A stretch of 64,000 bases of DNA from an uncultured Spirochaetales bacterium (GCA_964412895.1 CAYPQK010000001.1:5041-69040); one strand, 5' to 3'; positions 34,451-50,850 are shown, counted from the first letter of the stretch. Notes: generated by a model not told the origin, from the sequence alone. A program made the numbers and translations.

Positions 34451-36052
34451 TTAGCCTTTGACCGGTTCTTTGGGGTTGACCCATTTCCGGAGGATGATCA
34501 TGCCGATGGGCGAGGTGACGGCGAGCGCCGCTATCCAGACCCACACCATCCGGTGGTTCGATACATCGCCCACCGCCTGCACCACCTGTCCCGCCTCGTT
34601 GAGGACCGCCTTGCCGTCGGGACCGATCTTATCCTGCACCGGGACATAATTCGCGAGCAGTTGTCCCGACATGAGGGCGACCAGCGGCTGTGAGATGAAC
34701 TTCGGGAGCATCGACAGGGTCATGTAGCTCGCCTCCTGTCCTTCGGGGGCGATGCGGGCGGTGTATTCCATCAGACGCGGCGACCAGATCGCCTCGCCGA
34801 CGGTGAACAGGCCGACGAATATCGTCAGAGCGATGTAGATGGCCAGCTTCCCCTCGCCGATGGCCGGGTCGAGTCCCAGCCACACCTGCCAGATGAGACG
34901 GCCGAACACCGTGTCGACCAGCGGTATGAAGAACCGTTCGGGAAGCGTCACGAGGAACACGGCGAAGGCCGAGACGAACGAGCCGAAGGTGATCATCAGG
35001 TAGGGACTCCAAGTACGGGTCGCCCACGCGATGAGCGGTACGAAGAAGATGACGATGACCGGGTTGAGCATCCCGTAGACACTGCCCACCTTTGCCCCCT
35101 CGCCCAGCACGCGGATGCCGTATTTGGGGAAGGTGTAGTGGAAGTGGAAGAAGACATAGTTGACCCCGAGCAGTATCGTGAGGAGCAGCATGAATTTCCA
35201 GAAGGCGGGCTGTTTCATGACATCGACAAAGATGCGGTAGGCGTCGGTAAAGGCGTCGCGCACCGTTTTCCCGAGCGCCGGGAGGAAGGCCCCCTCGCTC
35301 TTTTTGGGCGGCGTTATCTCGAGCCGGCCATTGTCGTGCAGGTTGATGCCGTCGCGCAAAAGCGCGATGAATATCATCGCCGGTATCGACATGAAGAAGG
35401 CGACGAGCATGATGAAGCGGTAGGTCGACATGGTGCCCAGCAGCGGGACCACCGTGGTGCCGTATTCGCCCAGAGAGTTGCGGATGTAGTCGAACATCCA
35501 GCCGCCGACGGCGAAGCCGACATTCATCAGGGTATAGAACATCGCGAAGCCCATCGCCGAGGTGTCGGACTTGGTGTAGCGCTTGATGGCGACGGTGATG
35601 ACCGGCGACAGGAAGGCGACCGACACCGCCTGCACCGCGAAACCGAAAAGAATAAGCGTGTAAATATTGGTCGAGACGGCGAAAACCAGACGCGAGGCGA
35701 TGGCGAGCACCGTCCCGATGACGAGCACCCGTTTGACCCCCACCGCGTCGACGAGCGCGCCGACCCCGAACATGAGCACCGTGTAGGAGACATTCCACCC
35801 GCCGACCACCTGACTGGCGGCGATATCGGACATCCCGACATCGCTCGATAAGAAAAGGGTGAGCGTCGAAAGCATCAGCGACCACGCGACGAACTCGGTC
35901 ACCTGCGAAATGGAGACGAACCATATCTCGCGCGGAGAATCCTTAAGCCCCCGGCCGTACTGATAAATGATGAAGACCAAGTACCCGGCGGCGGCGGCCA
36001 GCACCGGATAGAGGAAATAATAGATCCAGCTGATATCGCGTTCGGGGATCAT
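34451..36052 (-). CDS. MFS-type transporter (POT/peptide-transporter-like)
   Basis: 12 or more TM helices. ATG at 36052 with a GGAG RBS. Confidence 0.75.
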   Translation of the reverse strand: MIPERDISWIYYFLYPVLAAAAGYLVFIIYQYGRGLKDSPREIWFVSISQVTEFVAWSLMLSTLTLFLSSDVGMSDIAASQVVGGWNVSYTVLMFGVGALVDAVGVKRVLVIGTVLAIASRLVFAVSTNIYTLILFGFAVQAVSVAFLSPVITVAIKRYTKSDTSAMGFAMFYTLMNVGFAVGGWMFDYIRNSLGEYGTTVVPLLGTMSTYRFIMLVAFFMSIPAMIFIALLRDGINLHDNGRLEITPPKKSEGAFLPALGKTVRDAFTDAYRIFVDVMKQPAFWKFMLLLTILLGVNYVFFHFHYTFPKYGIRVLGEGAKVGSVYGMLNPVIVIFFVPLIAWATRTWSPYLMITFGSFVSAFAVFLVTLPERFFIPLVDTVFGRLIWQVWLGLDPAIGEGKLAIYIALTIFVGLFTVGEAIWSPRLMEYTARIAPEGQEASYMTLSMLPKFISQPLVALMSGQLLANYVPVQDKIGPDGKAVLNEAGQVVQAVGDVSNHRMVWVWIAALAVTSPIGMIILRKWVNPKEPVKG

Positions 36053-36185
36053 GGGACGCTCCGTGAACCGTTGATGTCGCGCGATGCTAGCAGAAACGGC
36101 GGGACGAGTCAATGCGCCCAGATTTTATTTGAAAAACGGGACGCGGCGCATACAATGGGCCCCTGTTCTTGAGGGAGAGAACCGT

Positions 36186-36488
36186 ATGAACGATCATGTC
36201 TACCGGGTCCGTGAAGAGATCGCGTGGCGCAAGATGAAGGACGGGACGGTGACCATCGTTTCGCCGCTCGTCGAAAAGATCATATCCATCAACACGACGG
36301 CGGGGGTCATCTGGGAACTGCTCGACGGAAAGCGGACCGTCGCCGCGGTCATCGACAGCCTGTATGAAAAATTCAAAGGCGAAGAGGGGGTCGACCGGGC
36401 GGTGTTGGAACGCGATACCCATGAGATGTTACGCGACCTTATCGACCGTCAACTTGTCGAACAAATTGTTGACAATTCCGGCGGGTGA
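36186..36488 (+). CDS. PqqD-family protein (RiPP precursor peptide recognition element, RRE)
   Basis: GGGAGAG RBS. About 100 aa with PqqD-like core VSPLVEKIISINTTAGVIWELLDGKRTVAAVIDSL. First gene of a co-directional operon. Confidence 0.72.
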   Translation: MNDHVYRVREEIAWRKMKDGTVTIVSPLVEKIISINTTAGVIWELLDGKRTVAAVIDSLYEKFKGEEGVDRAVLERDTHEMLRDLIDRQLVEQIVDNSGG

Positions 36489-36539
36489 GGTTATCATCCG
36501 CAACCGGTTTCGATAGTGAACCATGAGTGGGAGTATAGC

Positions 36540-39500
36540 ATGAAGCGTATCGTTGTTGCTCTTATCTGGATTATGTTCCTGTCCCTCGTAGTAGGCGGCT
36601 GTTCCACCAAGGATCAGTGTAACGCCGACACCGACTGCAAGACGGGCTACGCCTGCGGTGACGACAAGAAGTGTCACGAGATACAGGTGGCGCTCCTCTT
36701 CCAGGACATCGCCGACGGTCAGACCCTCACGGTCGCCGACGATCTGGACAAGAGCGACGAGGCCATCCAGATCAATGTCACCGTTGCCGCGCAGGCGACG
36801 GCCGGCTCGATAAAGGACGGCACGGCGATCACCCTCGAGGTGAAGAGTTCCGCGGCCGAGACCTCCGACGGCGACACCGTGAACGGCACCGCCGCGACCG
36901 CGACGAAAAGCTATGCCGGGATACTCGTCAACGGCTTCGCCCGTTTTCTCAATATCCCCTTCGCGGAAGGACAGCATACCGTGACCGCCTATCTGACCCT
37001 GAGTCCCGCCATCAAGGTGACGGCGACCCTCACCGCCACCTATGAACAGACCGATACGCTGGTCATGCGCTACTATAAAGGCGGCACCACTCCGACGATG
37101 CTCGAAGGGGCGACGCTCGACGACAACGACGATCTCAACAAAGAGGCGGCGAATTTTCAGGTGAAAATGGAAGCGGTGACCACCGGGTATGCCGACGGGC
37201 AGGTGGTCGAGATATTCATCGAAGGCTACAGCATCACATGGGCGCCGGCCATCATAGAGGACGGCGTGGCGTCGTTCCCGTCGTTCGTCGTGCCGATATG
37301 GGCCGACATCGTGATGCGGGTGAAGGTGGCCGATGTCGAGGATACGCTCGCCTTCAGCGCCGTTTCGGCGGAGTCCTGCGGCTTTGCGCTCGATATCCAG
37401 AACAACGACCGGTTCGGCATGGCCGACGATACGAGTGCCGGACTCAGCGGTCTCCAGAAGATGCTCACCATCAGCGATGTCACCCTCTGCTCTACCGGTT
37501 CCGAGATAGAGATATACATCGACGGCGTGCCGGGCACCGACGAACCTGACGAAACGCTGACTCTCGGCGCGGCGTCGGTCCAGCAGTCGATCACCCTGCC
37601 CGAAAGCGCGAACCAGACCGATACCCGCACCGTCACGGTGGTGATGAAGGATGACGACAGCTCGGCGACCGGCCAGATGACCGTCACCGGTCTGTTCGTC
37701 GACATCACGGCGCCGACACTGAGTGTCACTGCGCCGCTTGATAACACCACCCTTACCCCGGTCGACGACACCAATACTTCGCTGGAAGGGGTCCAGATAG
37801 CGGTCACCGGTTCGGCATCCGACTCGTTGTCGGACGAGGTCACGGTCGAGGTGCGCGACGGCACGACGCTGTTGGGCGATACGACCGGTACCGGCGACTA
37901 CTCCGTGGACGATGTCTCCTTCACCGCGACCAACGAGGCGCTGACGCTCGCGGTCACCGCCCGCGACGCCATCGGCAACGAAACGGTCGTCGAGGTCCCG
38001 CTCAAGGTCTATGTGAACGATCCGGTGATAGCCTTCCAGACCATCTGCGCCCGGACCCCGGTCATGAATATGCAGCTTTCGTCGGCCGACGACGGCGACC
38101 AGCTCGCCGGCGGCGTCCAGTGCGCCGTCATCGTCCGGACCACCGACATCGAATCGGCCTCGACCGAGGTGTCGCTGAATATCAACGATGAAGATCCGAT
38201 AGTCGAAACGATAGGGACCGGCGGCCTCACGCTGTTCGACATGGTCACCCTGCCCGACGGCGAGGATTCGCTCACGGCCCGGGTCATGCATCTGGGGACC
38301 GCATACCAAACCGGGATCACCGTGCAGGTCGATGCGACCCTGCCGGTGGTGACGCTCACGCTCACCCCGACGGTCGACGGCGGGTTCGCGCAGTCGGTCG
38401 ACGCCGACTTCGCCTTCTCGTGCAGCGAAGCCGATTGCGAATACAGCTACCGTATCGACAGCGGAGCTTTGTCGGCCTACGCGACGACCGCCACCGCCGA
38501 ATACACCGCGCTGGCCGAAGGGCTTCATACCTTCGCCGTTCAGGCCCGCGACCCGTTCGGGAATGTCGGCGATCTGACCGTCTTCAACTGGACGATCGAT
38601 CACACGGCGCCCGCCGCCCCGACGGTGACCGGAGTAACGCCGACCAACGATACGACCCCCGAATGGTCGTGGAACACCCCGACCGGCACGGTCGAATTCC
38701 GTTACAGCACCGACCAGACGAACTGGACGACGACCGCCGTCACCGCCTTCACCCCGGCCCCGGCGCTCGCCGAGGGCGACCAGATACTCTATGTGCAGGG
38801 CCGTGACGCCGCCGGCAACTGGTCGGCGAGCGGATCGTTCACCATCACCATAGACACCACCGCCCTTTCCGCCCCGGTCGTGAGCGGCACCACGCCGACC
38901 AACGACACCACCCCCAAATGGTCGTGGGACGCGATAACCGACGCGGTCGAATATCGCTACAGTTACACCGACGGCTCCGGCTGGACGACGACCGCCGACA
39001 ACTTCTTCATTCCGGTCACGGCGCTCACCGCGGGCGACCACACCCTCTTCGTTCAGGCCCGCGACGCGGCGGAGAACTGGTCCGACAGCGGCTGGTTCAC
39101 CATCACCATAGACCTCACCGCTCCCGCCGCCCCGGAGGTGCTCGGCACCACGCCGACCAACGACACCACGCCGAACTGGTCGTGGATACCGGTCGCCGAC
39201 GCGGTCAACTACCGCTACAGCTACGATGAGATGACTTGGACCGAAACCGTCGATACGACCTTCACCCCGACCACGCAGCTCGCCGCGGGGACTTATACCC
39301 TTTTCGTTCAGGCGCAGGATGCCGCCGGCAACTGGTCGCTTTCGGGATCGAAGGAGGTTGTGATCGACCTGTCGACGCCCAATGCGCCGGTGGTTACCGG
39401 CGTAACGCCGACCACCGATACGACGCCGACCTGGTCATGGGGCGCGGTGACCGACGCGGTCGAATACCGCTACAGTTACACCGACGGCTCCGGCTGGGCG

Positions 39501-42500
39501 ACGACGACCGCTCTTTCCTTCACGCCGTCCGCGGCGCTCGCCGAGGGCTTTGTCACGCTCTTTGTGCAGGCCCGCAACGGCGTCGGCACTTGGTCGGGCA
39601 GCGGGCTTTTCACCATCGAGATAGATATCACCGCCCCGGCGGCGCCGACGGTGACCGGCATAACGCCCACCAGCAACACCCAGCCGACTTGGTCGTGGGA
39701 CACCCCGACCGACGCGGTCGAGTTCCGTTACAGCTACGACGAATCTTCGTGGACCGTTACGACGGCCAATTCTTTTACCCCGGGCAGTGCGCTGATCGAC
39801 GACGCCTATACCCTTTATGTCCAAGCCCGCGACGCGGTCGGCAATTGGTCGACGAGCGGATCGTTCGAGATCGTGGTGGACACCGAGGCGCCGGTCGCGC
39901 CGACGGTGACCGGTACCACGCCGACCAACGACACGACGCCAACTTGGTCGTGGAATACCCCGGTCGGCGCGGTCAACTTCCGCTACAGCTACACCGATGG
40001 ATCGGGCTGGACCGAAACAACCGGCACCAGCTACACCGCCGCCCCGGCCCTTACCGCCGGTACCTACACGCTCTATGTGCAGGCCGCCGACGCTACCGGT
40101 AACTGGTCGACGAGCGGCAGTTTCGCCATCACGATAGACACCACCGCGCCGACGCTGGTTATCGGTGCGCCGTCGGCGACCGTTGCGAAGAACGGGACCG
40201 ATGTGACCTATACCGTCACTTACTCCGGCGCCGACACCGTGACGCTGGCGAACGGCAACATCACGCTCAACGCGACCGGCGGCGCCTCGGGCTCCGTCGC
40301 AGTGACCGGCACCGGCACGGTGACCCGCACCGTGACGATATCGAACCTGACCGGGAACGGCACGCTCGGCATCAGCATCGCGGCCGGAACGGCGAGCGAC
40401 ACGGCGGGGAACACCGCCCTCGCGGCCGGTCCGTCGGCCACCTTCACGGTCGATAACACCGCGCCGACCGTGGTCATCGATCCGGTCAATGCCTGCACCC
40501 GCCGGACGACCGGCACGATCTCGTTCACCGTGACCGGCGCGACCACCACCACCTGCCGGTTCGACACCCCCGCCGGGCTCGGCACACCGGGCGCCTGCGG
40601 CGGCTCCTACGGATATACCCTCGTCGATGGCGACGGCACCTATACCCTCACCGTCACGGCGACCGACGATGCCGGCAACAGCGGCTCGGACGATGCCTTC
40701 TTCTCGCTCAACACCACCACGCCGACCGTCCAGTGGTTCCTGCCGGCCAGCGGCACCAGCTACAAGGCCGGTTCTGCGGTGCCGAGTTTCGTCTACCGCA
40801 CCAAGAACCTCGAGGCGGGCGAAATGGTCGAGATCATAGATGCTGACACCGGACTTGCCTTGGCCAGCGGGATCACCGCCGGATCGCTCTGCAACGCGAC
40901 CGAGGATGTCTCGATACCGCTCGATCTGCCCGACAAGTGCGGCACCTACAAACTCTACGCCAAGGTCAACGACGGCGTCGACTCCGTTGATCGCTACACC
41001 GATAATCTTACGGCACTTCCGGCGACCCAGCGTACCTACACCTTCGACCGCGACGAGCCGGTCATCTCCTCCTTCGTGGTGAATAACGACGCCGACAGCA
41101 ACAATGTCCTCATCTCGACCGAGGATGCCGACGGCATCGCGGGCAACGGGATGCAGGCCGATATCACCATCACGGTACAGGACGCCATCGACATCGGCCG
41201 CACCGTGACGCTCCGCAACAAGACGACCGGCAACACCTACACCGCGACGGTCGTGGGCGATAAAACCGCCACCTTCACCGGCATCACGATACCGGAAGGG
41301 ATCAACTCCTTCGGCGCGACGCTGGTCGACTGCGGCGGCAACACCTCCGCCGAGAGCGCGAAGACCATCACCGTCGATACCACCCCGCCGAGCGTCCTGT
41401 TCCAAGGCCCGACCGGCGTGACGCCGGGCCATCCGCTCTGGCTCACCTCGCGCGATGGCACCGTGGTCGGCGACGAACTGATCGGACAGGAGCTGAAGTT
41501 CAAGATAACGGGCGACTGGGATAACGCCACCCCGGTGGTCAAGCATTTCGTGTACGACTATGCCGATGCGCCCGTGGGTGCGGCCCATACCTATACCCTC
41601 GGCGAAATGGACATCGTCGGCACCGAGGTGAGCATCGACCTCGACGGCTCGGACGATCCCGCCGCGCCGCTCGCCTACAACAAACACAAGTTCGAGATCA
41701 CCGTCGAGGACGCGAACGGCAACATCCGCGTCGCCTCGCGCACCTACGAGGGCGACCCCAAGATCCCGAACGCCGTCATTTCCTATCCGACCGACGAACT
41801 GGTACTCGATGTCACAAAAGATGAGGACGCGGTCGCGTCGGGCGTCCAGTTCACGCTGCACCTCGATCTGACCAAGCTCGCCACCCCGACCGGCACCGAC
41901 TCGACCATCGATATCCTCGCGATACCGATAACGGCGCTCGGCGGCACCGAGGATGGTACCCGCAGCCGCAAATCGTGGAACGGTTTCATCGCCGACACCG
42001 ACGGCGCCGCTCAGACCTTCCCGAACGACGGCACCTTCCTGCGGCTCGGTGACGGCTTCTGGCGCCTGACGGTCAAGGTGACCGACGACCACCAGAATGT
42101 CTACGACACCGCTCTCCTGCCGGTCGCTCAACAGATCGATGTCGATGTGGTGACCGATGTTGCCTCTTCGTCGCTCTATCTCAGTAACGATAAACTCATC
42201 AACGGTACCCAGACCGCCCCGACATGGCTCAACAGCAACGACGGCGGTCCCACCTACGATCTGTATGTCGAGACCGATTCCCCGAACGGCACGAACAACG
42301 CCTGCATAAATGTCAACGCCGGAGGCGACATCTGCGCTGATGTGGACGCCGGCCGTGCCGAATTCACCGCGGTGGCGCTCACCACCGGCGGGGTCGAGAA
42401 CACCATCGTGTTGACGGTCAACAACGGCGTTGCGGTCGCGACCGACACCTACTATGTCCGCGCCGACAACACCGATCCGACGCTCGATCCGGCGACCGAT

Positions 42501-44597
42501 GTCAATCCGGAGCCCTATGTCCACGGCGCCGGTATCTGGGAGATCGGCTACGGTTATGACGACGACATCGACCATGACACCACCGCGATACTCGAACTCG
42601 ACGGCGCCTCGGTGAACCGGCTCATCTTCGTCATCGGCAACATCGAGGATGTGGCGGGCTACACGACCCACGGGACCGTCGTCCTGACCCCGGTCGACGC
42701 GATCGGCGGGACCACCACCGTCAATATCGCCGAGGACGGCGCCGACATGATGGCCGAATTCACGAACCTCACCTTCGAGGACAGCGTCATCGGCGGTCAG
42801 ACCGACATCGAGATGCTGGTGACGATAACCGAACAGCCCTCCGGCAACACCTACACCAAAACGATCTTCGTCCATGTCAATCTGGAGAAACCCGAAGGTA
42901 TCACCCCGACCGTGACCACCGATCCGGCCCGCGGCGAATCTTTCGTTCAGTGGAATGCCGTCGTCGGCAACAATTCGGCCTACGCCGGTGCGTTCCAGAA
43001 CCGCGTGTACGAATATCAGGTGAAGTATGAACAGTATGGCGGCGCCTGTTCGCTCGATGACAGCGAAAGTGCGTTCGACACCGGCGTCGCGATCACTCCG
43101 CTGGCCGACTTCTCGGTGGCCGATCCGTCGCTCAACGGCGATGATTTCGTCGCGCCCAAAGCGGCGGGCGAAGCGCAGAACTACATGTTCTACCTAAAGA
43201 AACGGTCGAATATCGCCCTCACCCAGACCGCCGACATCCACCGGAACGGCGATCCCTACTGCTTCGCGGTCCGCGCCAGCGACGGCATCTATGCGCAGGA
43301 CGGCACGATACTTGTGACAAATACCTCGCCCATCTTGTCTACCAATGTTGTGGATAAGGGAGCGATACAGTTGACCTCTAATGAGCTGATAGCAACGGCC
43401 GCGGGTGCCCATTCAACCATGAATATCAAGAATATGGGCGACATCAACGGCGATACCAAGACCGATTTTGTCATTTCCGATTCGGGTCGGCAGAAAGCGT
43501 ATGTGTTCATCAGCAACGCGGTAGGCGCTCCGACAAAACTGGAACTGGTCAATCCGGTGGATGTCGGTATCACCTCTTTCGGGTATCGTCTCGCCCTCGC
43601 CGACCTTAATGGTGATGGATTCACGGATGTTCTGGTAAGCGATGTCGGCACGAAGAGCATCCATATTTATTATGGTATAGCCAATTCGGTCAATACCGCT
43701 CGCGGCGATAAGATCACCTTTGTCGATACCATATCCGACCTTTCTGGTATCGGCGATTTCAATGGCGACGGATGTCATGATCTTGTTGTCGGGCAGGCAT
43801 CGTATGACGATCCGGGGAATGCGGCCCCCGGCGACCAGACGGGGCGGGCTTTCGTGGTTTATGGTGACGACAAAGGCGCCGCGGGAAAGACCTGCATCGG
43901 CGATTATACTACGCAGGTCGGCGTCTCTTATCTCGGTTCAGCCGCCGGCGAACGGTTCGGATACAATGTCCGGAAAATCGGGAACATCAAGAACGAAATG
44001 AATGGCACCGTGCCCTACGGTTGTTTTGTCGGCGGACATTATGACAATGTCAATCCGGCATCCGCCAAGATCACTAAGGCCAAAGTGTTCTATGGTTCCG
44101 CTGCTCCGGTCGGCGGCAATATCACCTCCTATGATGTCACCGTTAACGGTCTTGCTCAACTTCGCACCCTCTTCTTCGGGAAACTCAACGGTGACGATTT
44201 CTCCGATTTCGGCATCATTGACAGCGGTAAGATAAAATTCTTCTACGGGTCGGCCGCCGGTACCGTTTTCCCGGGCGTATGGACCGAAGGGACCAATCAG
44301 ATCACCCGTAGCGACATCATGGATGAAGTGGCGGGCGTCGAAAGCGGCGTGTGGGGATTGGGCAGTTCCGGATATGCCGAAGATATCAACGACGATGGGC
44401 TGACCGATTTCTTCATCAACGGAGAAAAGGATCAGTATATGTATAGCGGGATGGGCACCTTCTTTACGATGCACCCCGCTCTCTATATGGGTCTTCCCAT
44501 AGGGGCAGGCAGTTCACAGTCGACGATCCTTTCCTACGGACTGGTGGTGTGTAACCGCAACACCGATGCCGGTAATTGTATGTTGTATTATCGTTAA
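36540..44597 (+). CDS. Giant (2693 aa) surface adhesin-like lipoprotein with tandem Ig-like repeats and C-terminal FG-GAP/VCBS repeats
   Basis: GGGAG RBS. Signal plus lipobox VGGC. Six tandem repeats of about 85 aa (TPTNDTTPxWSW...YRYSxxDxxxW...). C-terminal GDxNGDGxxD integrin-alpha-like repeats. Confidence 0.85.
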   Translation: MKRIVVALIWIMFLSLVVGGCSTKDQCNADTDCKTGYACGDDKKCHEIQVALLFQDIADGQTLTVADDLDKSDEAIQINVTVAAQATAGSIKDGTAITLEVKSSAAETSDGDTVNGTAATATKSYAGILVNGFARFLNIPFAEGQHTVTAYLTLSPAIKVTATLTATYEQTDTLVMRYYKGGTTPTMLEGATLDDNDDLNKEAANFQVKMEAVTTGYADGQVVEIFIEGYSITWAPAIIEDGVASFPSFVVPIWADIVMRVKVADVEDTLAFSAVSAESCGFALDIQNNDRFGMADDTSAGLSGLQKMLTISDVTLCSTGSEIEIYIDGVPGTDEPDETLTLGAASVQQSITLPESANQTDTRTVTVVMKDDDSSATGQMTVTGLFVDITAPTLSVTAPLDNTTLTPVDDTNTSLEGVQIAVTGSASDSLSDEVTVEVRDGTTLLGDTTGTGDYSVDDVSFTATNEALTLAVTARDAIGNETVVEVPLKVYVNDPVIAFQTICARTPVMNMQLSSADDGDQLAGGVQCAVIVRTTDIESASTEVSLNINDEDPIVETIGTGGLTLFDMVTLPDGEDSLTARVMHLGTAYQTGITVQVDATLPVVTLTLTPTVDGGFAQSVDADFAFSCSEADCEYSYRIDSGALSAYATTATAEYTALAEGLHTFAVQARDPFGNVGDLTVFNWTIDHTAPAAPTVTGVTPTNDTTPEWSWNTPTGTVEFRYSTDQTNWTTTAVTAFTPAPALAEGDQILYVQGRDAAGNWSASGSFTITIDTTALSAPVVSGTTPTNDTTPKWSWDAITDAVEYRYSYTDGSGWTTTADNFFIPVTALTAGDHTLFVQARDAAENWSDSGWFTITIDLTAPAAPEVLGTTPTNDTTPNWSWIPVADAVNYRYSYDEMTWTETVDTTFTPTTQLAAGTYTLFVQAQDAAGNWSLSGSKEVVIDLSTPNAPVVTGVTPTTDTTPTWSWGAVTDAVEYRYSYTDGSGWATTTALSFTPSAALAEGFVTLFVQARNGVGTWSGSGLFTIEIDITAPAAPTVTGITPTSNTQPTWSWDTPTDAVEFRYSYDESSWTVTTANSFTPGSALIDDAYTLYVQARDAVGNWSTSGSFEIVVDTEAPVAPTVTGTTPTNDTTPTWSWNTPVGAVNFRYSYTDGSGWTETTGTSYTAAPALTAGTYTLYVQAADATGNWSTSGSFAITIDTTAPTLVIGAPSATVAKNGTDVTYTVTYSGADTVTLANGNITLNATGGASGSVAVTGTGTVTRTVTISNLTGNGTLGISIAAGTASDTAGNTALAAGPSATFTVDNTAPTVVIDPVNACTRRTTGTISFTVTGATTTTCRFDTPAGLGTPGACGGSYGYTLVDGDGTYTLTVTATDDAGNSGSDDAFFSLNTTTPTVQWFLPASGTSYKAGSAVPSFVYRTKNLEAGEMVEIIDADTGLALASGITAGSLCNATEDVSIPLDLPDKCGTYKLYAKVNDGVDSVDRYTDNLTALPATQRTYTFDRDEPVISSFVVNNDADSNNVLISTEDADGIAGNGMQADITITVQDAIDIGRTVTLRNKTTGNTYTATVVGDKTATFTGITIPEGINSFGATLVDCGGNTSAESAKTITVDTTPPSVLFQGPTGVTPGHPLWLTSRDGTVVGDELIGQELKFKITGDWDNATPVVKHFVYDYADAPVGAAHTYTLGEMDIVGTEVSIDLDGSDDPAAPLAYNKHKFEITVEDANGNIRVASRTYEGDPKIPNAVISYPTDELVLDVTKDEDAVASGVQFTLHLDLTKLATPTGTDSTIDILAIPITALGGTEDGTRSRKSWNGFIADTDGAAQTFPNDGTFLRLGDGFWRLTVKVTDDHQNVYDTALLPVAQQIDVDVVTDVASSSLYLSNDKLINGTQTAPTWLNSNDGGPTYDLYVETDSPNGTNNACINVNAGGDICADVDAGRAEFTAVALTTGGVENTIVLTVNNGVAVATDTYYVRADNTDPTLDPATDVNPEPYVHGAGIWEIGYGYDDDIDHDTTAILELDGASVNRLIFVIGNIEDVAGYTTHGTVVLTPVDAIGGTTTVNIAEDGADMMAEFTNLTFEDSVIGGQTDIEMLVTITEQPSGNTYTKTIFVHVNLEKPEGITPTVTTDPARGESFVQWNAVVGNNSAYAGAFQNRVYEYQVKYEQYGGACSLDDSESAFDTGVAITPLADFSVADPSLNGDDFVAPKAAGEAQNYMFYLKKRSNIALTQTADIHRNGDPYCFAVRASDGIYAQDGTILVTNTSPILSTNVVDKGAIQLTSNELIATAAGAHSTMNIKNMGDINGDTKTDFVISDSGRQKAYVFISNAVGAPTKLELVNPVDVGITSFGYRLALADLNGDGFTDVLVSDVGTKSIHIYYGIANSVNTARGDKITFVDTISDLSGIGDFNGDGCHDLVVGQASYDDPGNAAPGDQTGRAFVVYGDDKGAAGKTCIGDYTTQVGVSYLGSAAGERFGYNVRKIGNIKNEMNGTVPYGCFVGGHYDNVNPASAKITKAKVFYGSAAPVGGNITSYDVTVNGLAQLRTLFFGKLNGDDFSDFGIIDSGKIKFFYGSAAGTVFPGVWTEGTNQITRSDIMDEVAGVESGVWGLGSSGYAEDINDDGLTDFFINGEKDQYMYSGMGTFFTMHPALYMGLPIGAGSSQSTILSYGLVVCNRNTDAGNCMLYYR
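38600..40140 (+). repeat. Six tandem repeats of about 255 bp (85 aa) inside the giant adhesin gene
   Basis: Repeated protein motif APAAPTVTG(V/T)TPTNDTTPxWSW...(E/N)(F/Y)RYS...FTP..AL..G.YTL(F/Y)VQA(R/Q)DA(A/V)GNWS.SGSF.I.ID. Confidence 0.8.
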
Positions 44598-44611
44598 ATC
44601 GGGAGGAACTG

Positions 44612-44740
44612 ATGTATAAGAAGCCTTGCGTCCTGGAAGAAAAGACCATAGAAAAAAGGATCCTTTTCGCCTGCACCCTTGATACGCCGGAAGACGAGTT
44701 CTGCGTAGACAGCATTTCTACCGCCGGCAGTCAAGGCTGA
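44612..44740 (+). CDS. Small ORF (42 aa) encoding a candidate RiPP precursor peptide (not in the ORF track)
   Basis: GGGAGGAA RBS 5 nt upstream of the ATG. Sequence MYKKPCVLEEKTIEKRILFACTLDTPEDEFCVDSISTAGSQG with 3 Cys. Locally lower GC. Sits 15 nt after the giant gene and 19 nt before the peptidase gene. Confidence 0.5.
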   Translation: MYKKPCVLEEKTIEKRILFACTLDTPEDEFCVDSISTAGSQG

Positions 44741-44759
44741 ACGACTCAGCTTTTCTTCT

Positions 44760-45203
44760 ATGAATAATTTTTCCATCGACGAACTCATTGCAACCTTCTC
44801 TACCGATGGCGGTCTCGGCGTGGTGCTGTTCGGCGCACAGAACTCCATGCTGCCTTCCATTCGCCCCGGAGAACTCATCCACATCGCGCCGGTGGATCGC
44901 GACCGTCTGCGTTCCGGCGATGTGGTGGTCTTCCGCACCGGCGAAGTGCTCGTGGCGCACCGGCTCGTCTGGAAACGCGGCTTCGTCGCGCGGACCAAGG
45001 GCGACAACAATCCCTATTGCGACCCAGCCATACCGGTGTTCGACATCGTCGGCGTGGTCGAAGGAAAGAAGTCGCGGTGGGCGTTCTGCTACTATCTCGT
45101 GCGGAACCGGCTTCGCCACTACACGCCCCGTCCGGCGCGACTGCTGTTCTCGGAGTTGAAGAATAAACTGCTCGGCCGGAAACGGTGGATGGAACACCTA
45201 TGA
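44760..45203 (+). CDS. Clan SF (signal-peptidase I / LexA-like S24/S26) serine peptidase-like protein
   Basis: Motifs GAQNSMLPSIRPGELI, GDVVVFRTGEVLVAHRLVWKRG and VARTKGDNNP resemble the Ser-Lys dyad boxes of S24/S26 peptidases. Its 3' end overlaps the rSAM gene. Confidence 0.55.
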   Translation: MNNFSIDELIATFSTDGGLGVVLFGAQNSMLPSIRPGELIHIAPVDRDRLRSGDVVVFRTGEVLVAHRLVWKRGFVARTKGDNNPYCDPAIPVFDIVGVVEGKKSRWAFCYYLVRNRLRHYTPRPARLLFSELKNKLLGRKRWMEHL

Positions 45204-46213
45204 CCATCAAACGCCCCGGCATCCTTTTCGAGGTGGCGGACCGCTGCGATGCGCGGTGTCTGCACTGTTACCAGCCGCGGGAATGCGCTCACCGGCTCAT
45301 GTCGCTCGCCGAGATCGAACGGGTGCTCGACATCCTTGCCGATAACGAATATCTCGATGTCACCTTCAGCGGCTACGAGCCGTTCACCAATCCCGACCTG
45401 TTCAAGATCATCGAGGCGGCCCGCAAGCGCCGGTTCTTCGTCAATCTCAAGACCAACGGTCTCCATCTCACCGCCGACAATGTCGCGCGGCTGAAGGCGC
45501 TCCATATCGGCACGGTCCATGTCTCCCTCTATTCGCCCGACCGCGATGAACACGACCGCGCCGCCGGTGTCCCCGGGGCGTACGACCGTATCATGACCGG
45601 CCTCGACCTTCTGCGTGAGGCAGGCATAAAGGCCATGCTTGCCGCGCCGCTTTTGCATCCGCTCCCCGATCTCGCGCGGCTCACCGCCTTTGCCAAAGAG
45701 CGCGATCTGCAGCTGGTCATCGACTACGGTTTGTTCAGTTCGTTCGACAAACGGCCCGAAGTCGAGGCGGTGAAGCTGACCGAAGCGGAGCTTGAGACGG
45801 CGATCCGTTTTCAGTACGGCATAGAAGGCGACGAGATGAATTTCTATGCGCCGAAGGAGGCTTCGTTCCTTTGCCACTACGGTGATCCTTCCACTTTCCG
45901 CATAGACTGCGCGGGCGGCATTTATGCCTGCGGCAAATGCACCGTGCCGCTCGGCAACCTGCTGACCGACGATTTTGCCGCGTTGGTGCAGAGGGCGGCG
46001 GCGGAACGGCCGCGCATCATCCGCGACCGGGAATGCAACGACTGCGACCTGTTCCCGTACTGTAGCCCCTGTCCCGCCGAAGCGTTATTGGACGGCGGCT
46101 TTCTCTGCGGCTGTTCGGCGGTACGCAAACGGATCGCCCAGATCAAGCGCCGGATCGGCAGCGCAGGAACAAAAAGGACCGGCGATGCCGCGGAGGGTCC
46201 GTGTCAGGTTTGA
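45185..46213 (+). CDS. Radical SAM enzyme with C-terminal SPASM domain (peptide-modifying maturase-like)
   Basis: CxxxCxxC motif in RCDARCLHCY. A C-terminal Cys cluster (CAGGIYACGKC...CNDCDLFPYCSPC) is typical of SPASM/twitch domains. Confidence 0.85.
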   Translation: MDGTPMTIKRPGILFEVADRCDARCLHCYQPRECAHRLMSLAEIERVLDILADNEYLDVTFSGYEPFTNPDLFKIIEAARKRRFFVNLKTNGLHLTADNVARLKALHIGTVHVSLYSPDRDEHDRAAGVPGAYDRIMTGLDLLREAGIKAMLAAPLLHPLPDLARLTAFAKERDLQLVIDYGLFSSFDKRPEVEAVKLTEAELETAIRFQYGIEGDEMNFYAPKEASFLCHYGDPSTFRIDCAGGIYACGKCTVPLGNLLTDDFAALVQRAAAERPRIIRDRECNDCDLFPYCSPCPAEALLDGGFLCGCSAVRKRIAQIKRRIGSAGTKRTGDAAEGPCQV

Positions 46214-46953
46214 AGACCCGCTGTTTTTCGATAGCAGGCTATCTCCTGAATATATCGTATGCCCCCCGGATGATCTTTCCCGCGCCGTTCCGGTTGTTTG
46301 AGACCGCAACACCGAATGAACTTCTTCTTCCTATAACCACCCAAGAACATTCCGATATCAACGACATTCGACGAGTCAACGGCGCATGGCGGATATCACG
46401 GCACCGGCCGTACCTCTATCTGCCCAAAGTGCTGGCCTACGAAGGCTTCGAGCGCGAGGAACTGTTCCTGCTCGTCCATTCCTGCTTTCTTGTTGATCGA
46501 GGGGGATGGAGCCATCTCTTTCTCGCCACTTCGGGGACCGGGAAGAGTACGTTGGCCCGCAAGATGCGCGGCCTCATGACCGGCGGCAACGACGAGACCA
46601 ATGTCCTCTGCCGTCGCGCCGGTATTCTTTACGGTTATTCGACCCCCTTCTACACGATATCGAAGCTCAAGAACGCCGTCATCTCCAATATCTCCGCGCC
46701 GCTCAAACGGGTCTATCTCCTGCGCAAGACCGAAGAGCCGTCGCGTATCGGTGAGCCGGTCGCCGGAGATGTACTGTGGCGCTATCTGGTCGAGGGACAG
46801 GTGAGCACACCGTACAGTAAACGCGAATATTTTTCCGCCTACCACCGCATGGTGAACGACCTCTGCGACTGCCACCCCGTCCATCCTTTCCATCACAACT
46901 TGACCGATCCGCCCGAACGGATCGCGGCGCTCCTCGAAAGCGGCGACCGGTAA
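46201..46953 (+). CDS. HPr kinase/phosphorylase-like (HprK C-terminal domain) P-loop protein
   Basis: P-loop LATSGTGKSTLA in an HprK-like context. GTG start overlapping the rSAM stop. Exact start uncertain (alternative ATG at 46270). Confidence 0.55.
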   Translation: MSGLKTRCFSIAGYLLNISYAPRMIFPAPFRLFETATPNELLLPITTQEHSDINDIRRVNGAWRISRHRPYLYLPKVLAYEGFEREELFLLVHSCFLVDRGGWSHLFLATSGTGKSTLARKMRGLMTGGNDETNVLCRRAGILYGYSTPFYTISKLKNAVISNISAPLKRVYLLRKTEEPSRIGEPVAGDVLWRYLVEGQVSTPYSKREYFSAYHRMVNDLCDCHPVHPFHHNLTDPPERIAALLESGDR

Positions 46954-46973
46954 AACATACTAAAAGAATCGTT

Positions 46974-47031
46974 AGTAGGCCCCGGCCTACTTGTTGTCGA
47001 TAGGCGTCGGCCTACAAGTGTTGCTTTTTTG
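46974..47031 (+). terminator. Probable rho-independent terminator ending the PqqD-to-HprK-like operon
   Basis: Two GC hairpins (GTAGGccccggCCTAC and TAGGCgtcgGCCTA) followed by TTGCTTTTTT. Confidence 0.45.
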
Positions 47032-47132
47032 ATTGCGGAGATTACTTCTTAGAATCATAGAGCTTTTCTATTAAAGATCATCAAGGATGTTTATTTGCAG
47101 AGTATTTTCAAGCTGTTATAACATTTTTTCTG

Positions 47133-47161
47133 TTGACAAAGTTCCCTTACGAGGATATGCT
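47133..47161 (+). promoter_or_regulatory. Sigma70-like promoter upstream of the second small peptide ORF
   Basis: TTGACA, 17 nt spacer, TATGCT. Confidence 0.45.
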
Positions 47162-47202
47162 TGCGCTGTTTTGTTTGTTGAAAAAAGATATTTTTTGAAA
47201 TC

Positions 47203-47352
47203 ATGATGAATTCTCGCGGCTACGAAAAACCGGTTATAATTGAAGAACTCGTACTGGAAAAAGAACTTCTCTTTGCCTGCCTTTTTCATAACCGGAATCA
47301 GTGCGAACCTATCTGCCGCAACCCCGGGCAAAGCGCTGGGGAGCCTTGTTGA
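47203..47352 (+). CDS. Small ORF (49 aa), second candidate precursor peptide paralogous to 44612..44740 (not in the ORF track)
   Basis: MMNSRGYEKPVIIEELVLEKELLFACLFHNRNQCEPICRNPGQSAGEPC. Shares Y-x-K-P-x-[VI]-[LI]-E-E-x-x-[IL]-E-K-x-[IL]-L-F-A-C with the first peptide. 4 Cys. Lies in an AT-rich intergenic region. No clear SD. Confidence 0.42.
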   Translation: MMNSRGYEKPVIIEELVLEKELLFACLFHNRNQCEPICRNPGQSAGEPC

Positions 47353-47441: not shown

Positions 47442-48593
47442 ATGAAGAAGAACGCCGGAAATGAAAAAACGACCATACTTATAGTGGAAGACGATCCCGG
47501 ACTATCGAAGCTCATCGACATCTCTCTCAAAGCTCACGGGTGGGGAACGATAGCGGCCTTTTCGGGCGAAGAGGCGTTGGCGATGTCCCGGGACCGGCGG
47601 CCGCGGCTGATCCTCCTTGACTACTCACCCCCCGATATGTCGGGGTCCGACTTCATCGACGCCGCCGAACGGATAGCGTTCCCGTTGCCCCCTTTTATAG
47701 TGGCGACCGGCCGCGGAGACGAACGGATAGCGGTCGAGATGATGAAACGGGGCGCCCGCGACTACATCGTCAAGGATTCTCAGTTCCTCAACACTTTGAG
47801 CATAGCGGTCGAACGGGTATTGGAACAACTGGAAACGGAGCGGCGGCTGAAAGAGACCGAACGACTCCTGCGGGAACACGACGCGGCGCTCATCGCCTCC
47901 CGGGAACAGCTCCAGATATTCGCCGAACGGTTGCTCATCGTACCGGAACAGGAGCGGGCCCGCATCGCCCGCGAGATCCACGACCTGTTGGCGCAGGACC
48001 TGATCCGCCTGAAGATAGATCTGGTCTGGCTGAACGGACAGTTCGCCAAGATGACCCCGCTTCCCGTTCTTCTCAAAGAACGGGTCGTCGAGATGATCCA
48101 GATAGCGGACGGCGCGATCACCTGCGTGCAAAAGATCGCCACCGAACTGCGTCCGGCGGTGCTCGACAGTCTCGGGCTGTGCGCCGCGGTGGAATGGCAG
48201 GCCCGTGAATTTCAGGAACGGACCGGCATTCAGTGTCTGGTGAAAGTGCCGGAAAAAGATCTTCCGGTGGACAGGGATTTCACTATTGCCATTTTTCGTA
48301 TCCTGCAGGAGAGTCTGACCAATGTACGGCGGCACGCCAACGCAACGCGGGTGGATGTCCTGCTACGGCAAAAGGCCGGATATCTGTTCCTCAGGGTACA
48401 GGATAACGGATCCGGCATAACACCGACGGCGCTCCACGATCCGCTTTCCATCGGGCTTACCGGTATGCGGGAGCGGGCGGTGCTTCTCGGTGGTCGGATC
48501 GAGATCACCGGCAAGCCGGGGGCGGGGACGACGGTCGAGGTCCGGTTGCCGCTTTCGAAAATAGGAAAAAAACGGGAGGCGGCTCCGTTATGA
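47442..48593 (+). CDS. Hybrid REC-HisKA_3-HATPase_c sensor kinase (NarL-partner type, no extracytoplasmic sensor)
   Basis: N-terminal receiver ILIVEDDP...LLDYSPPDM. HisKA_3 H-box ERARIAREIHDLLAQ. HATPase G-box. Confidence 0.85.
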   Translation: MKKNAGNEKTTILIVEDDPGLSKLIDISLKAHGWGTIAAFSGEEALAMSRDRRPRLILLDYSPPDMSGSDFIDAAERIAFPLPPFIVATGRGDERIAVEMMKRGARDYIVKDSQFLNTLSIAVERVLEQLETERRLKETERLLREHDAALIASREQLQIFAERLLIVPEQERARIAREIHDLLAQDLIRLKIDLVWLNGQFAKMTPLPVLLKERVVEMIQIADGAITCVQKIATELRPAVLDSLGLCAAVEWQAREFQERTGIQCLVKVPEKDLPVDRDFTIAIFRILQESLTNVRRHANATRVDVLLRQKAGYLFLRVQDNGSGITPTALHDPLSIGLTGMRERAVLLGGRIEITGKPGAGTTVEVRLPLSKIGKKREAAPL

Positions 48594-49213
48594 ATATTCT
48601 GATCGCGGACGATCATGCCATTGTGCGGAAAGGGTTAGCCCAACTTTTGGTCGACGAGTTCCCCGGCGTGTCGATCGGCGAGACCGCCGGCACGCAGGAA
48701 ACGCTGGCCGAGCTGTCGCTCCGGCGGTGGGATGTATTGGTGCTCGACATCTTCATGCCGGGGTCCGGCGGACTCACGGTGCTTGACGAAGTGAAGCGCC
48801 AACAGCCGCGACTGCCGGTGCTGGTCCTGAGCACCGCGCCGGAAGAACAGATGGCGGCCCGGGTCCTGAAAGCGGGGGCGAGCGGCTATCTCAATAAACA
48901 GTGCGCTCCCGAGGAATTGGTCAATGCGGTCAGAAAGATACTCGCTCACGGCCGCTATGTCAGCGTCACGATGGCGGAACGGCTCGCCGCCGATATCGGC
49001 CGGCCCGAACGATCCCTGCAGGAAGAACTCTCCGATAGGGAATACACCGTCCTACGGATGCTCGTGGCGGGCAGATCGATCAAAGATATCGCGGCCGAAC
49101 TGAATATCAGCCCGAAAACGGTGAGTACCTTCCACACCCGGATATGGGGCAAGCTCCGCGTCACCAACGACGCCGACATGGTCCGTTACGCGCTGGATCA
49201 CGGCATCTCCTGA
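48590..49213 (+). CDS. NarL/LuxR-family response regulator (REC plus HTH_LuxR)
   Basis: ILIADDH...VLVLDIFMPG receiver. C-terminal LuxR HTH LSDREYTVLRMLVAGRSIKDIAAELNISPKTVSTF. ATGA overlap with the upstream kinase. Confidence 0.9.
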   Translation: MNILIADDHAIVRKGLAQLLVDEFPGVSIGETAGTQETLAELSLRRWDVLVLDIFMPGSGGLTVLDEVKRQQPRLPVLVLSTAPEEQMAARVLKAGASGYLNKQCAPEELVNAVRKILAHGRYVSVTMAERLAADIGRPERSLQEELSDREYTVLRMLVAGRSIKDIAAELNISPKTVSTFHTRIWGKLRVTNDADMVRYALDHGIS

Positions 49214-49341
49214 CCGTTTCACGCTCTTCGTAAGCGCAATCCTACAAAAGAAAAGGCGTCGTCCTACAGAAAAGCGACCGTGAAAAAGATATTCTGTTCC
49301 CAGTGAGGTGAATGGTCCGGGAATGGAAAATGGAGGTCGTC

Positions 49342-50850
49342 ATGAAAGGAATTGTTGGGCTTGGCGCATGGTTGATGGCGGTTATGTTCGTCTCCTCCTG
49401 TGGGGGCGAGGAGCCGGAGCAGGAGGTTTTCGTTTCGCTTTCCGGCCGCACCGCGACGGCGCTCGCCACGGTAAGCAATATCATAGAGGTCAATCAGAAA
49501 GCGGCCAACTTCGGCATTGCGGTCACCTCGGTGGGCGATGTGAACGGTGACGGTTATGGCGATGTGGCCGTCGGGGCCAATTTTTATGACAACGGGCAGA
49601 TCGACGAGGGGATGCTGTTCATCTATCACGGAACGGCGACCGGGATCAAGACCGCCTATGCCATACGGCTCGAATCGAATCAAAAGGATGCCCGTCTCGG
49701 CTGGTCGGTCGCCTCTGCGGGCGATGTGAACGGCGACGGCTACGGCGATATGATCGTCAGCGCGTACCGGTACGACAGCGGCCAGACCGACGAAGGAGTG
49801 GCGTTCGTATATCACGGTTCTGCGACCGGCATCGGTCCTGTCTACGCCCGACGGCTCGAAGTTGATCAGGCGAACGCCTCTTTCGGCATTTCGGTCGCGG
49901 CGGCGGGCGATGTGAACGGCGACGGCTACGGTGATGTGATCGTCGGTGCCTTCTTGTACGACAACGGACAGAACGACGAAGGGGCCGCCTTCATCTATCA
50001 CGGATCGGCGACCGGCATCGGTGCGCAGTATGCCCGGAGACTGGAAATGGATCAGGCGGGCGCGTGGTTCGGTTATTCGGTCGCGTCGACGGGTGATGTG
50101 AACGGCGACGGGTACGACGATGTGGTCGTCGGCGCTTTTCTGTACAACAACGGACAGAACGACGAAGGGGCCGCGTTCATCTATCATGGTTCGGCGACCG
50201 GCATCGGCACGACTGCGGACCGCAGGATCGAACCGGATCAGGCGGGCGCCTACTTCGGCTATTCGGTCGCGTCGGCGGGCGATGTGAACGGCGACGGCTT
50301 CGACGATGTGGTCGTCGGCGCTTATTTGTACGACCACGGACAGACCGACGAAGGAGCCGCTTTTATGTATCACGGCTCGGCGAATGGCTGCGGTACGGTA
50401 TACGACCGGATGATCGAACCGGATCAGGCGGGAGCGAATTTCGGCGCCGCGGTCGCGTCGGCGGGCGATGTGAACGGTGACGGGTACGGCGATGTGGTCG
50501 TCGGCGCCCGCTCGTATGACGGCAACAAGACCGACGAGGGGGCCGTTTTCATCTATCGCGGCTCGGCTAACGGCCTGAATGTAGCGACGAACCAGATGTT
50601 CGAATCGAATCAGGCGGATGCCTTTTTCGGCCGGTCGGTCGCGTCGGCGGGCGACATGAACGGCGACGGCTACGGCGATGTGCTGGTGGGGGCAAGTCTG
50701 TACGATAACGGCCAATATGACGAAGGCGCCGCGTTCTTCTATCACGGTTCGTCGTCCGGGCTCTGTATAGGCCGTTGCCCGGAAGATAGCGGCACTTCCA
50801 GCGAAACGACAACGGAACTCTCCTCCCCTCCCAAAAATAAGCGGCACTAA
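49342..50850 (+). CDS. FG-GAP repeat (integrin-alpha-like 7-bladed beta-propeller) lipoprotein
   Basis: GGAGG RBS. Signal plus lipobox VSSCG. Seven about 61-aa repeats with GDVNGDGYGDVxVGA...DEGAAFIYHGSATG. Confidence 0.8.
   Translation: MKGIVGLGAWLMAVMFVSSCGGEEPEQEVFVSLSGRTATALATVSNIIEVNQKAANFGIAVTSVGDVNGDGYGDVAVGANFYDNGQIDEGMLFIYHGTATGIKTAYAIRLESNQKDARLGWSVASAGDVNGDGYGDMIVSAYRYDSGQTDEGVAFVYHGSATGIGPVYARRLEVDQANASFGISVAAAGDVNGDGYGDVIVGAFLYDNGQNDEGAAFIYHGSATGIGAQYARRLEMDQAGAWFGYSVASTGDVNGDGYDDVVVGAFLYNNGQNDEGAAFIYHGSATGIGTTADRRIEPDQAGAYFGYSVASAGDVNGDGFDDVVVGAYLYDHGQTDEGAAFMYHGSANGCGTVYDRMIEPDQAGANFGAAVASAGDVNGDGYGDVVVGARSYDGNKTDEGAVFIYRGSANGLNVATNQMFESNQADAFFGRSVASAGDMNGDGYGDVLVGASLYDNGQYDEGAAFFYHGSSSGLCIGRCPEDSGTSSETTTELSSPPKNKRH

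Follow-up and report, generated by a model that had tools for sequence, protein, structure and literature searches.

What product is made by a compact set of putative peptide-maturation genes that brackets the gene for a giant surface adhesin? The question is raised by a stretch of 64,000 nucleotides from an uncultured Spirochaetales bacterium (GCA_964412895.1 CAYPQK010000001.1:5041-69040), which was analysed at its full length and is called the window below. The open reading frame (ORF) map confirmed what an earlier note, made from the sequence alone, had described: six packed genes on the plus strand, all in the same direction and almost without gaps (36186-46953), and a second peptide gene 3' of them. 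In order, the six genes encode a PqqD-family protein, the giant adhesin, a small peptide (pepA), an S26-like peptidase, a radical S-adenosylmethionine (radical SAM) enzyme and a ScmC-like P-loop protein; the second peptide gene is pepB. We suggest that these genes form an uncharacterised maturation system of the kind that makes ribosomally synthesised peptides that are post-translationally modified (RiPPs), dependent on a RiPP recognition element (RRE) and a radical SAM enzyme, and genetically hard-wired to the giant surface adhesin. We give this reading a probability of about 0.72.

Six-frame motif scans of the window and of all fetched loci recovered two types of precursor peptide. The pepA peptide (42 aa, leader MYKKPCVLEEKTIEKRILFAC, core TLDTPEDEFCVDSISTAGSQG) combines a YxKP leader with an acidic core containing two cysteines, and pepB (49 aa, leader MMNSRGYEKPVIIEELVLEKELLFAC, core LFHNRNQCEPICRNPGQSAGEPC) has a leader as in pepA and a four-Cys core. 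Peptides of the pepA type (MYKKPCVLEEKTIEKRILFAC-TLDTPEDEFC-VDSISTAGSQG) have their two core cysteines 6-11 residues apart and their core is often acidic; those of the pepB type (..YEKPVIIEELVLEKELLFAC-LFHNRNQCEPICRNPGQSAGEPC) have about four core cysteines. Both types share the leader motif Y-x-K/R-P-x-[IV]-[IVL]-x-E...LLF, followed by x-C. The alignment of 16 distinct peptides from 11 loci has Y7, P10, E15 and one Cys as invariant positions, and K9 occurs in at least 90% of the sequences. YxxP is the recognition motif of lasso B1 proteins, and the leader of pepA and pepB resembles the lasso YxxPxL motif and the WxKP start of PqqA.

Conservation of the small ORFs in related genomes, on which the earlier note had made its proposal depend, is clear. 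Orthologues of pepA were detected in 10 loci and those of pepB in L001/L014/L031, L015/L033, L016/L032 and L005/L017/L034 (related loci carry L numbers and homologous proteins P numbers). Every pepA is preceded by a GGAG-type Shine-Dalgarno sequence, in agreement with the strong ribosome-binding site reported for the 42-aa Cys-containing peptide. Among the peptide orthologues of group 1, the closest relatives described below, nucleotide differences amount to 0.55-0.62 at third and 0.18-0.28 at first and second codon positions; because the differences concentrate at third codon positions, pepA and pepB are real coding genes. Neither peptide matches any family in Pfam or NCBIfam. The metagenome search with a 6-sequence peptide alignment returned only 4 loci, and since all of them are close relatives, the precursor family was not extended by this route.

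The stand-alone PqqD-family protein (100 aa) matches PF05402 with 46.5 bits against a gathering threshold of 23.4, which bears out the PqqD/RRE assignment made earlier. Its best NCBIfam match is PqqD (42.8, cut-off 46), and it is far under the cut-offs of the GeoRSP, ScmD and lasso PqqD models. We consider it a putative RRE that would bind the YxKP leader. The radical SAM enzyme (337 aa from ATG) passes the Pfam threshold for PF04055 with 82.8 bits and has the CX3CX2C motif at C16/C20/C23. Seven further cysteines (C225, C244, C279-x2-C282-x5-C288-x2-C291 and C304, with C225 and C244 spaced as C-x18-C) form a C-terminal pattern that is kept in homologues down to 28% identity. On the basis of this motif the C-terminal cluster is probably of the SPASM type. 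PF13186 (SPASM) is recorded for the homologue P0011, and the closest solved structures to the enzyme are PqqE and SkfB. Among the NCBIfam equivalogs none is near its cut-off, the best being the ACGX radical SAM model (76 against 400), and the NCBI labels for the proteins of the system are limited to 'radical SAM protein', 'S24/S26 family peptidase' and 'hypothetical protein'.

The peptidase (147 aa) had been described as a clan-SF enzyme with a pair of residues resembling a Ser/Lys dyad. The clan stands, according to the fold matches, but the motifs point to a soluble S26B-type enzyme with Ser-His-Asp residues and not to a Ser-Lys enzyme of the S24/S26A type. Human SEC11A and SEC11C are its top sequence matches in PDB, aligned across the SM-x-P, HR and KGDNN motifs, and this alignment puts S29, H67, D82 and D88, all invariant in 20 homologues, on the catalytic motifs. 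The fold search with the AlphaFold2 (AF2) model (predicted local distance difference test score, pLDDT, 72) returned LexA, SEC11A, SipA and SpsB. The peptidase thus has the SM-x-P, (A/V)HR and KGDNN motifs and the clan SF fold of the Sec11, SipW and archaeal signal peptidases (MEROPS S26B), and by these features it is classified with the Sec11/archaeal S26B type. It differs from them in its short length, in the lack of a membrane anchor, in its score against TIGR02228 (archaeal-type signal peptidase I, 48.1 bits, under the cut-off of 51.85) and in its position inside a RiPP-like operon; the Peptidase_S24 model is also missed, just under the threshold (22.1 against 23.3). No transmembrane segment is predicted, the maximum Kyte-Doolittle hydropathy, KD(19), being 1.19, and the absence of a hydrophobic segment predicts an enzyme that, in contrast to signal peptidases, is soluble and cytoplasmic. 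We propose this S26B-like enzyme as the putative leader peptidase, presumably acting in the cytoplasm on a leader that is not a signal peptide.

The exhaustive HMMER search for the peptidase family in 1.84 billion representative proteins gave 2 matches at E<=1e-30, 519 at E<=1e-10 and 15,649 at E<=1e-3; no homologue was found in the plasmid collection. Among the best 150 matches, an S26-like domain is fused to NTP_transf_5 in P0051, P0097 and P0137, P0096 has an NTP_transf_5 domain, and in P0077 an S26-like domain is fused to a complete ATP-binding cassette (ABC) exporter. The NTP_transf_5 fusion is also encoded in L008 (3652-4965), and an S26-like::ABC exporter gene (L035 1860-4121) is located directly 3' of a PqqD gene and an HprK_rel_B-like gene. 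Judged by its domains, the L035 fusion has the architecture of a peptidase-containing ABC transporter in which S26 replaces C39, and such transporters are the precedent for a fusion of this kind. In lasso clusters the leader protease B2 is fused to the same type of nucleotidyltransferase (PMC8498205). Since the NTP_transf_5 and ABC fusions support it independently, we assign to the S26B-like domain a probable function as leader peptidase in PqqD/HprK-type RiPP pathways, and the fusions suggest that RiPP leader peptidases with such domains form a broader family that has no name yet. The 'signal peptidase' that appears in sactipeptide papers was considered and set aside: the wording is generic, and RumPc is an M16 metallopeptidase.

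For the P-loop protein (250 aa), called an HprK-like kinase in the earlier note, the P-loop and a remote relation to HprK were retained, but the family is ScmC. TIGR04249 (ScmC) matches it with E 5.5e-4, and PF27840 (ScmC) is precomputed on P0032, which is identical to the window protein, and on its homologues. H93, S111-G-x-G-K-S116 and N130-D-E are invariant, and the N-terminal extension is kept in homologues. Weak matches connect the homologues to HprK: Hpr_kinase_C in L011 (2.2e-4), HprK_rel_A in L008 (3.7e-4) and HprK_rel_B in L037 (1.1e-4). Moreover, hhalign aligned the ScmC family profile with the L035 protein that matches HprK_rel_B, HprK_rel_A and hpr-ser (96% probability, E 2e-9, 144 columns). 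Searches of PDB with the sequence and with a profile gave generic Walker-A matches only. The relation to HprK appears remote but consistent, and we regard the ScmC-like protein as a putative peptide kinase. A Ser conserved in the group-1 peptide tails, TA-S-EG in pepA and GQ-S-xG in pepB, is the candidate phospho-acceptor.

The system is rare. In the index of 5.8 billion proteins only 11 relatives of the radical SAM enzyme and 20 of the peptidase were found, and the scan of 185,579 species genomes detected 8 related loci, all in metagenome-assembled genomes (MAGs) that bear the label 'bacterium' or 'uncultured Spirochaetales'; apart from these, only ordinary archaeal signal peptidases were matched. 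All examples come from MAGs of anaerobic digesters or sludge. Group 1 (window, L001/L014, L015, L016 and L005/L017), with radical SAM enzymes 73-100% identical to that of the window, has the gene order PqqD-giant-pepA-S26-radical SAM-(pepB)-ScmC, and L001, an 85%-related locus, is the closest relative. L004 (55%) has giant-pepA-radical SAM-S26-ScmC-NTP_transf_5. In group 2a (L009/L018, L019 and L010; about 32%) the order is giant-peptide-ScmC-radical SAM-S26, and in group 2b (L011/L012, L020 and L037; about 32-35%) it is giant-peptide-ScmC-radical SAM-PrmA-like methyltransferase-S26(-NTP_transf_5). L008 (29%) has ScmC-PqqD-radical SAM/SPASM-peptide followed by the S26 gene fused to NTP_transf_5, and no giant gene. 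Conservation in group 2a is much higher for the giant protein (about 60%) and the S26 peptidase (about 59%) than for the radical SAM enzyme (32%) and ScmC (34%). The neighbourhood comparison proposed in the earlier note thus found the module of radical SAM enzyme, peptidase, kinase and peptide kept across loci whose radical SAM enzymes are 32-85% identical. Among the accessory genes, the PrmA/PRMT-like methyltransferase gene is positioned between the radical SAM and S26 genes in L011 (8851-10011) and L037 (accessory genes 6791-7936 and 8494-9480), and stand-alone NTP_transf_5 genes are present in L004 and L037. L005 (4091-7603) encodes a PilZ protein, a second radical SAM enzyme and a 674-aa spermine-synthase-like protein.

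The adhesin gene had been taken for an oddity within the operon; in the loci compared, however, no other gene accompanies the precursor gene as constantly. The start of pepA follows the stop codon of the giant gene by 1-20 nt in 10 distinct loci (nine and the window), wherever the upstream side is visible, and this adjacency persists with reshuffled enzyme genes and with giant homologues of 27-74% identity. The giant protein (2693 aa from GTG, although the ATG is the likely start) has a signal peptide (KD(19) 2.49) with the lipobox LVVGG-C, Big_13 and Y_Y_Y Ig-like repeats and a C-terminal FG-GAP propeller, according to Pfam. These data bear on the possibility of an ordinary sactipeptide- or ranthipeptide-type bacteriocin cluster, with a secreted antimicrobial product and an adhesin adjacency that has no function. 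Cys-rich cores together with a radical SAM/SPASM enzyme are typical of thioether bacteriocins, and the enzyme module is found without the giant gene in L008, beside a C25 peptidase, and in L035. We consider such a cluster unlikely, since pepA keeps its place behind the giant gene in 10/10 loci, the PqqD gene lies upstream of the giant gene in L001/L014, L015 and L016 as in the window, so that the adhesin is bracketed by genes of the system, no conserved immunity or exporter genes are found, and the radical SAM enzyme is far under the cut-offs for sactipeptide maturases. We rejected the candidate explanation that pepA extends the giant gene by readthrough or frameshifting: every one of the three phases is represented among the gaps between the two genes, and no pepA lacks a Shine-Dalgarno sequence of its own.

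Alignment of the giant tail (44520-44597 of the window) with the gene ends in L001, L004, L005, L009, L011, L015, L016, L019 and L037 detected a conserved C-terminus, ..LSYG-V-x-C-x6-9-C-x-YY (YGLVVC-x8-C-MLYYR in the window). It loosely resembles the peptide cores (..LLF-x-C-x6-11-C..) and to our knowledge fits no sorting signal. Because the position of pepA behind the adhesin gene is fixed and tail and cores have this loose resemblance, a product that works with the adhesin is suggested; it may be a small partner, subunit or ligand of the FG-GAP adhesin, not a free antibiotic. The likeness of the tail (YGxVxC-x6-9-C-x3-5-end) to the cores (LLFxC-x6-11-C-tail) could also mean that the enzymes mature the adhesin itself, for example at its Cys-x8-Cys tail, the peptides being decoys, regulators or tail remnants. 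As anSME shows, an exported protein can be modified by a SPASM enzyme at full length, before it is secreted. This is, in our estimate, the most improbable of the explanations considered, since the giant protein has a lipoprotein signal for Sec export and no YxKP or RRE-type leader motif, the peptides have a conserved leader and are under coding constraint, and the L008 module has a peptide and no giant protein. The lack of a YxKP motif was also the ground for rejecting the giant protein as an RRE substrate.

With pepA and pepB as the probable substrates, the system appears, from its genes and motifs, to work like an RRE-dependent radical SAM RiPP pathway, while it remains under the membership thresholds of the named systems compared below. 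The general features of radical SAM RiPP pathways are present, namely leader/core precursors beside the maturase, the PqqD-like RRE, and the CX3CX2C and SPASM-type Cys motifs. The earlier note had recognised no named RiPP class here, and this agrees with our results: the NCBIfam equivalog cut-offs were not reached, and the targeted literature searches found no paper describing the system, nor was a curated family found.

The lasso clusters for paeninodin and pseudomycoidin share with the system a Y-x-x-P-x-[LIV] leader motif near the N-terminus (Y7 and P10 are invariant in 16/16 peptides here), a stand-alone PqqD-type B1-like RRE and an HprK-homologous tailoring protein. Lasso clusters also contain NTP_transf_5-type nucleotidyltransferases, sometimes fused to the leader protease, as in relatives of the window system; the HprK homologues phosphorylate the lasso precursors and the nucleotidyltransferases glycosylate the phosphate (PMC8498205). 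However, the six window genes encode no B2 transglutaminase-like cysteine protease and no asparagine-synthetase-like cyclase domain, and the two roles would be taken by the S26B-like serine peptidase and the radical SAM/SPASM enzyme. The peptides also lack Thr at the penultimate leader position, and the window PqqD protein scores about 21 bits against lasso PqqD cut-offs of 70-80 (21.4 for a model with cut-off 80).

Haft's SynChlorMet (ScmC/ScmD/ScmE/ScmF) and GeoRSP systems have the same trio of a PqqD-family protein, a ScmC-type P-loop protein and a radical SAM/SPASM enzyme, and their NCBIfam models figure among the family-specific matches of the window proteins. The cut-offs were not reached for SynChlorMet (TIGR04248-04251; score/cut-off: ScmC 19.4/125, ScmD 23.5/100, ScmE 50.4/400, ScmF 50.7/400) or for GeoRSP (TIGR04302/04303; PqqD 27.5/100, radical SAM 68.4/400). 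The present system has one radical SAM enzyme, not two, and is distinguished by the S26B-like peptidase, the identified precursors and the adhesin linkage. It is likewise separated from pyrroloquinoline quinone biosynthesis by the PqqE score (61/381), in addition to the PqqD score given above, by the absence of PqqB and PqqC genes from the cluster and by peptides that match no family.

Sactipeptide and ranthipeptide (SCIFF) pathways have a radical SAM/SPASM maturase acting on Cys cores and RRE-dependent leader recognition, as proposed here. Their RRE is fused, whereas the one in the window is stand-alone, the precursors described here match no known precursor family, and of the maturase models StsB scores 54.9 against 625, with AlbA, SkfB and the SCIFF maturase far under the cut-off or outside the best 25 models. 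The leader proteases of these pathways are M16, C39 or others, not S26, and S24, S26 and signal peptidase go unmentioned in a review of RiPP leader proteases from 2023 (PMC10885120).

A functional precedent is provided by QhpC, a leader-bearing small subunit that receives Cys-to-Asp/Glu crosslinks from a radical SAM enzyme and is then processed by the dedicated serine protease QhpE (PMC7876137). The QhpC/QhpD/QhpE system resembles the one in the window in its Cys- and Asp/Glu-rich leader peptide, in its cytoplasmic radical SAM/SPASM crosslinking and in that its peptide becomes a subunit of a larger exported protein of the same operon (PMC7876137). The protease is subtilisin-like there and S26B-like here, the partner here would be the adhesin, and no cysteine tryptophylquinone (CTQ)/flavoprotein step, ABC exporter or dehydrogenase subunits are found here, so the analogy is functional and not homologous.

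We propose the following sequence of events. The pepA and pepB genes would be translated as leader-core precursors, the PqqD protein would bind the shared leader motif and present the core to the radical SAM/SPASM enzyme, and this enzyme would introduce radical-mediated crosslinks into the Cys core. Our best guess for these is Cys thioethers to Asp, Glu or other residues, because of the analogy with sactipeptides and ranthipeptides and with QhpD acting on QhpC (PMC7876137). The ScmC/HprK-like protein would then tailor the core, most probably by phosphorylation of a conserved Ser/Thr near the C-terminus, a guess based on the HprK homologues that phosphorylate lasso precursors and on the Ser conserved in group-1 tails. 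In relatives, an NTP_transf_5 nucleotidyltransferase and/or a PrmA-like methyltransferase may add further tailoring. Finally, the soluble Sec11-like S26B peptidase would cut off the leader in the cytoplasm. In a more specific version, which we offer tentatively and regard as rather doubtful, mature pepA is no free natural product but a radical SAM-crosslinked, possibly phosphorylated miniprotein dedicated, in QhpC style, to the adhesin, whose integrin-like FG-GAP propeller it serves as ligand, plug or subunit, and the Sec11-like enzymes are a previously unrecognised, wider class of cytoplasmic RiPP leader peptidases, which occur alone or as fusions with NTP_transf_5 or, where they replace C39, with an ABC exporter.

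Several observations weigh against a maturation system of this kind. In the Pfam search at E<=10, PF13186 (SPASM) gave no match in the window radical SAM enzyme, so that the radical SAM-SPASM description of the earlier note is carried by PF04055 and the conserved seven-Cys pattern and not by the SPASM family itself; PF07475 (Hpr_kinase_C) likewise gave no match in the window ScmC-like protein, whose AF2 model, built on a 10-sequence alignment, is unusable (pLDDT 36.5). S26 signal peptidases follow a rule of small residues at -1 and -3, which the putative leader/core junction, F-A/T/N/K-C, does not fit. An S26-like paralogue (57% identity, 202 aa) in L013 (3750-4358)/L021 (8116-8439), which belong to the same MAG as L005, has no gene nearby for a radical SAM enzyme, ScmC or a YxKP peptide; adjacent genes encode a Zn-ribbon protein, an SBBP beta-propeller protein and further proteins of unknown kind. 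The group-2 loci show no PqqD gene, all of them ending inside the giant gene. The cluster has no conserved transporter, the divergent major facilitator superfamily (MFS) gene being shared with the closest relative alone. Finally, it is from sequence that we infer every biochemical step, as well as crosslink type, kinase activity, site of cleavage, export and the functional tie to the adhesin.

If the proposed system is real, it is a new RiPP family with its own leader code, and a soluble Sec11/S26B serine peptidase joins the known leader-removal enzymes. The combination of a lasso-type kit (YxxP leader, PqqD protein, HprK-like kinase and nucleotidyltransferase) with radical SAM chemistry would imply that modules move between RiPP classes. 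Across deep divergence the precursor gene is invariably located directly behind the gene for a 2,000-2,700-aa integrin-like adhesin, which suggests a modified peptide acting together with a surface protein, and this link, if confirmed, would broaden the known uses of RiPP machinery. The system is small, a few genes and a 42-aa peptide, and suits heterologous expression.

The coordinates of the genes and of the regulatory signals are collected in Table 1.

Table 1. Genes and signal-like elements of the proposed peptide-maturation locus (positions in the window).
Feature	Position	Strand	Remarks
Promoter-like site TTGAAA-16-TACAAT	36129..36156	+	before the PqqD gene; consensus match only, 10/12; candidate operon promoter
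PqqD gene	36186-36488	+	ORF map
Promoter-like site TTGACA-17-TATCAT	36469..36497	+	3' end of the PqqD gene, before the giant gene; consensus match only, 11/12
Giant adhesin gene	36516 (GTG) or 36540 (ATG, MKRIVV...) to 44597	+	27 or 51 nt after the PqqD gene
pepA	44612-44740	+	14 nt after the giant gene; GGGAGG Shine-Dalgarno 6 nt upstream
8-bp hairpin over the pepA stop codon	44733..44753	+	-9.5 kcal/mol, z -1.2; weak, not beyond chance
S26-like peptidase gene	44760-45203	+	19 nt after pepA
Radical SAM gene	45200 (ATG, ATGA overlap) or 45185 (GTG) to 46213	+	
ScmC-like gene	46201 (GTG) to 46953	+	13-nt overlap with the radical SAM gene
Terminator-like hairpin and T-run	46974..47031	+	fold -24.6 kcal/mol, z-score only -1.6
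Promoter-like site TTGACA-17-TATGCT	47133..47161	+	5' of pepB; consensus scan
pepB	47203-47352	+	second peptide gene, 3' of the six-gene unit

The hairpin over the pepA stop codon is a possible attenuator that would set the ratio of precursor to enzymes. The terminator proposed for the end of the six-gene unit is plausible and statistically not exceptional: hairpin and T-run are present and the stem is retained in L001 with one G-U change, but the z-score is modest. For pepB, the shared leader motif and the promoter-like site were found as claimed, the site having an identical -35 element and TATACT as its -10 element in L001, but a clear Shine-Dalgarno sequence is absent. Between the ScmC-like gene and pepB, the non-coding stretch (46954-47202) is about 86% identical to L001 11758-12007, matching the conservation of coding sequences; the terminator-like hairpin and the -35/-10 elements fall within it, and a regulator binding site may be located there. 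Neither Rfam families nor tRNAs were found in the window.

Directly 3' of pepB (47442-51486, plus strand) lie genes for a REC-HisKA_3-HATPase hybrid kinase, a LuxR-type response regulator, a 512-aa FG-GAP protein with seven repeats and a second LuxR-type regulator, a set that is found beside the cluster only in the closest relative L001/L014. It raises the possibility that pepA and pepB are modified, quorum-sensing-like signals that control adhesin expression via these two-component genes. In the window and L001, pepB is downstream with its own promoter-like site, conserved between the two, immediately before the kinase and regulator genes and the FG-GAP protein gene, and radical SAM-modified signalling peptides such as streptide exist. 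This explanation is very unlikely in our view, as the kinase has no membrane or extracellular sensor domain and it and the LuxR regulators are cytoplasmic, the two-component genes are missing in L015, L016, L005, L004 and group 2, and in three relatives (L015/L033, L016/L032 and L005/L017/L034) pepB is inside the operon, between the radical SAM and ScmC genes.

On the other side of the cluster, the MFS transporter gene (34451-36112, minus strand) is divergent from it and was not seen beside the cluster in relatives other than L001/L014, where its product is 96-97% identical, compared with 72-88% for the cluster proteins. Further upstream, a 741-aa protein (25002-27227, plus strand) matches Disintegrin (PF00200, E 2.5e-20) and also a domain like the InlB B-repeat. 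Disintegrin is an integrin-binding module typical of eukaryotes, and the same region also encodes integrin-alpha-like FG-GAP proteins.

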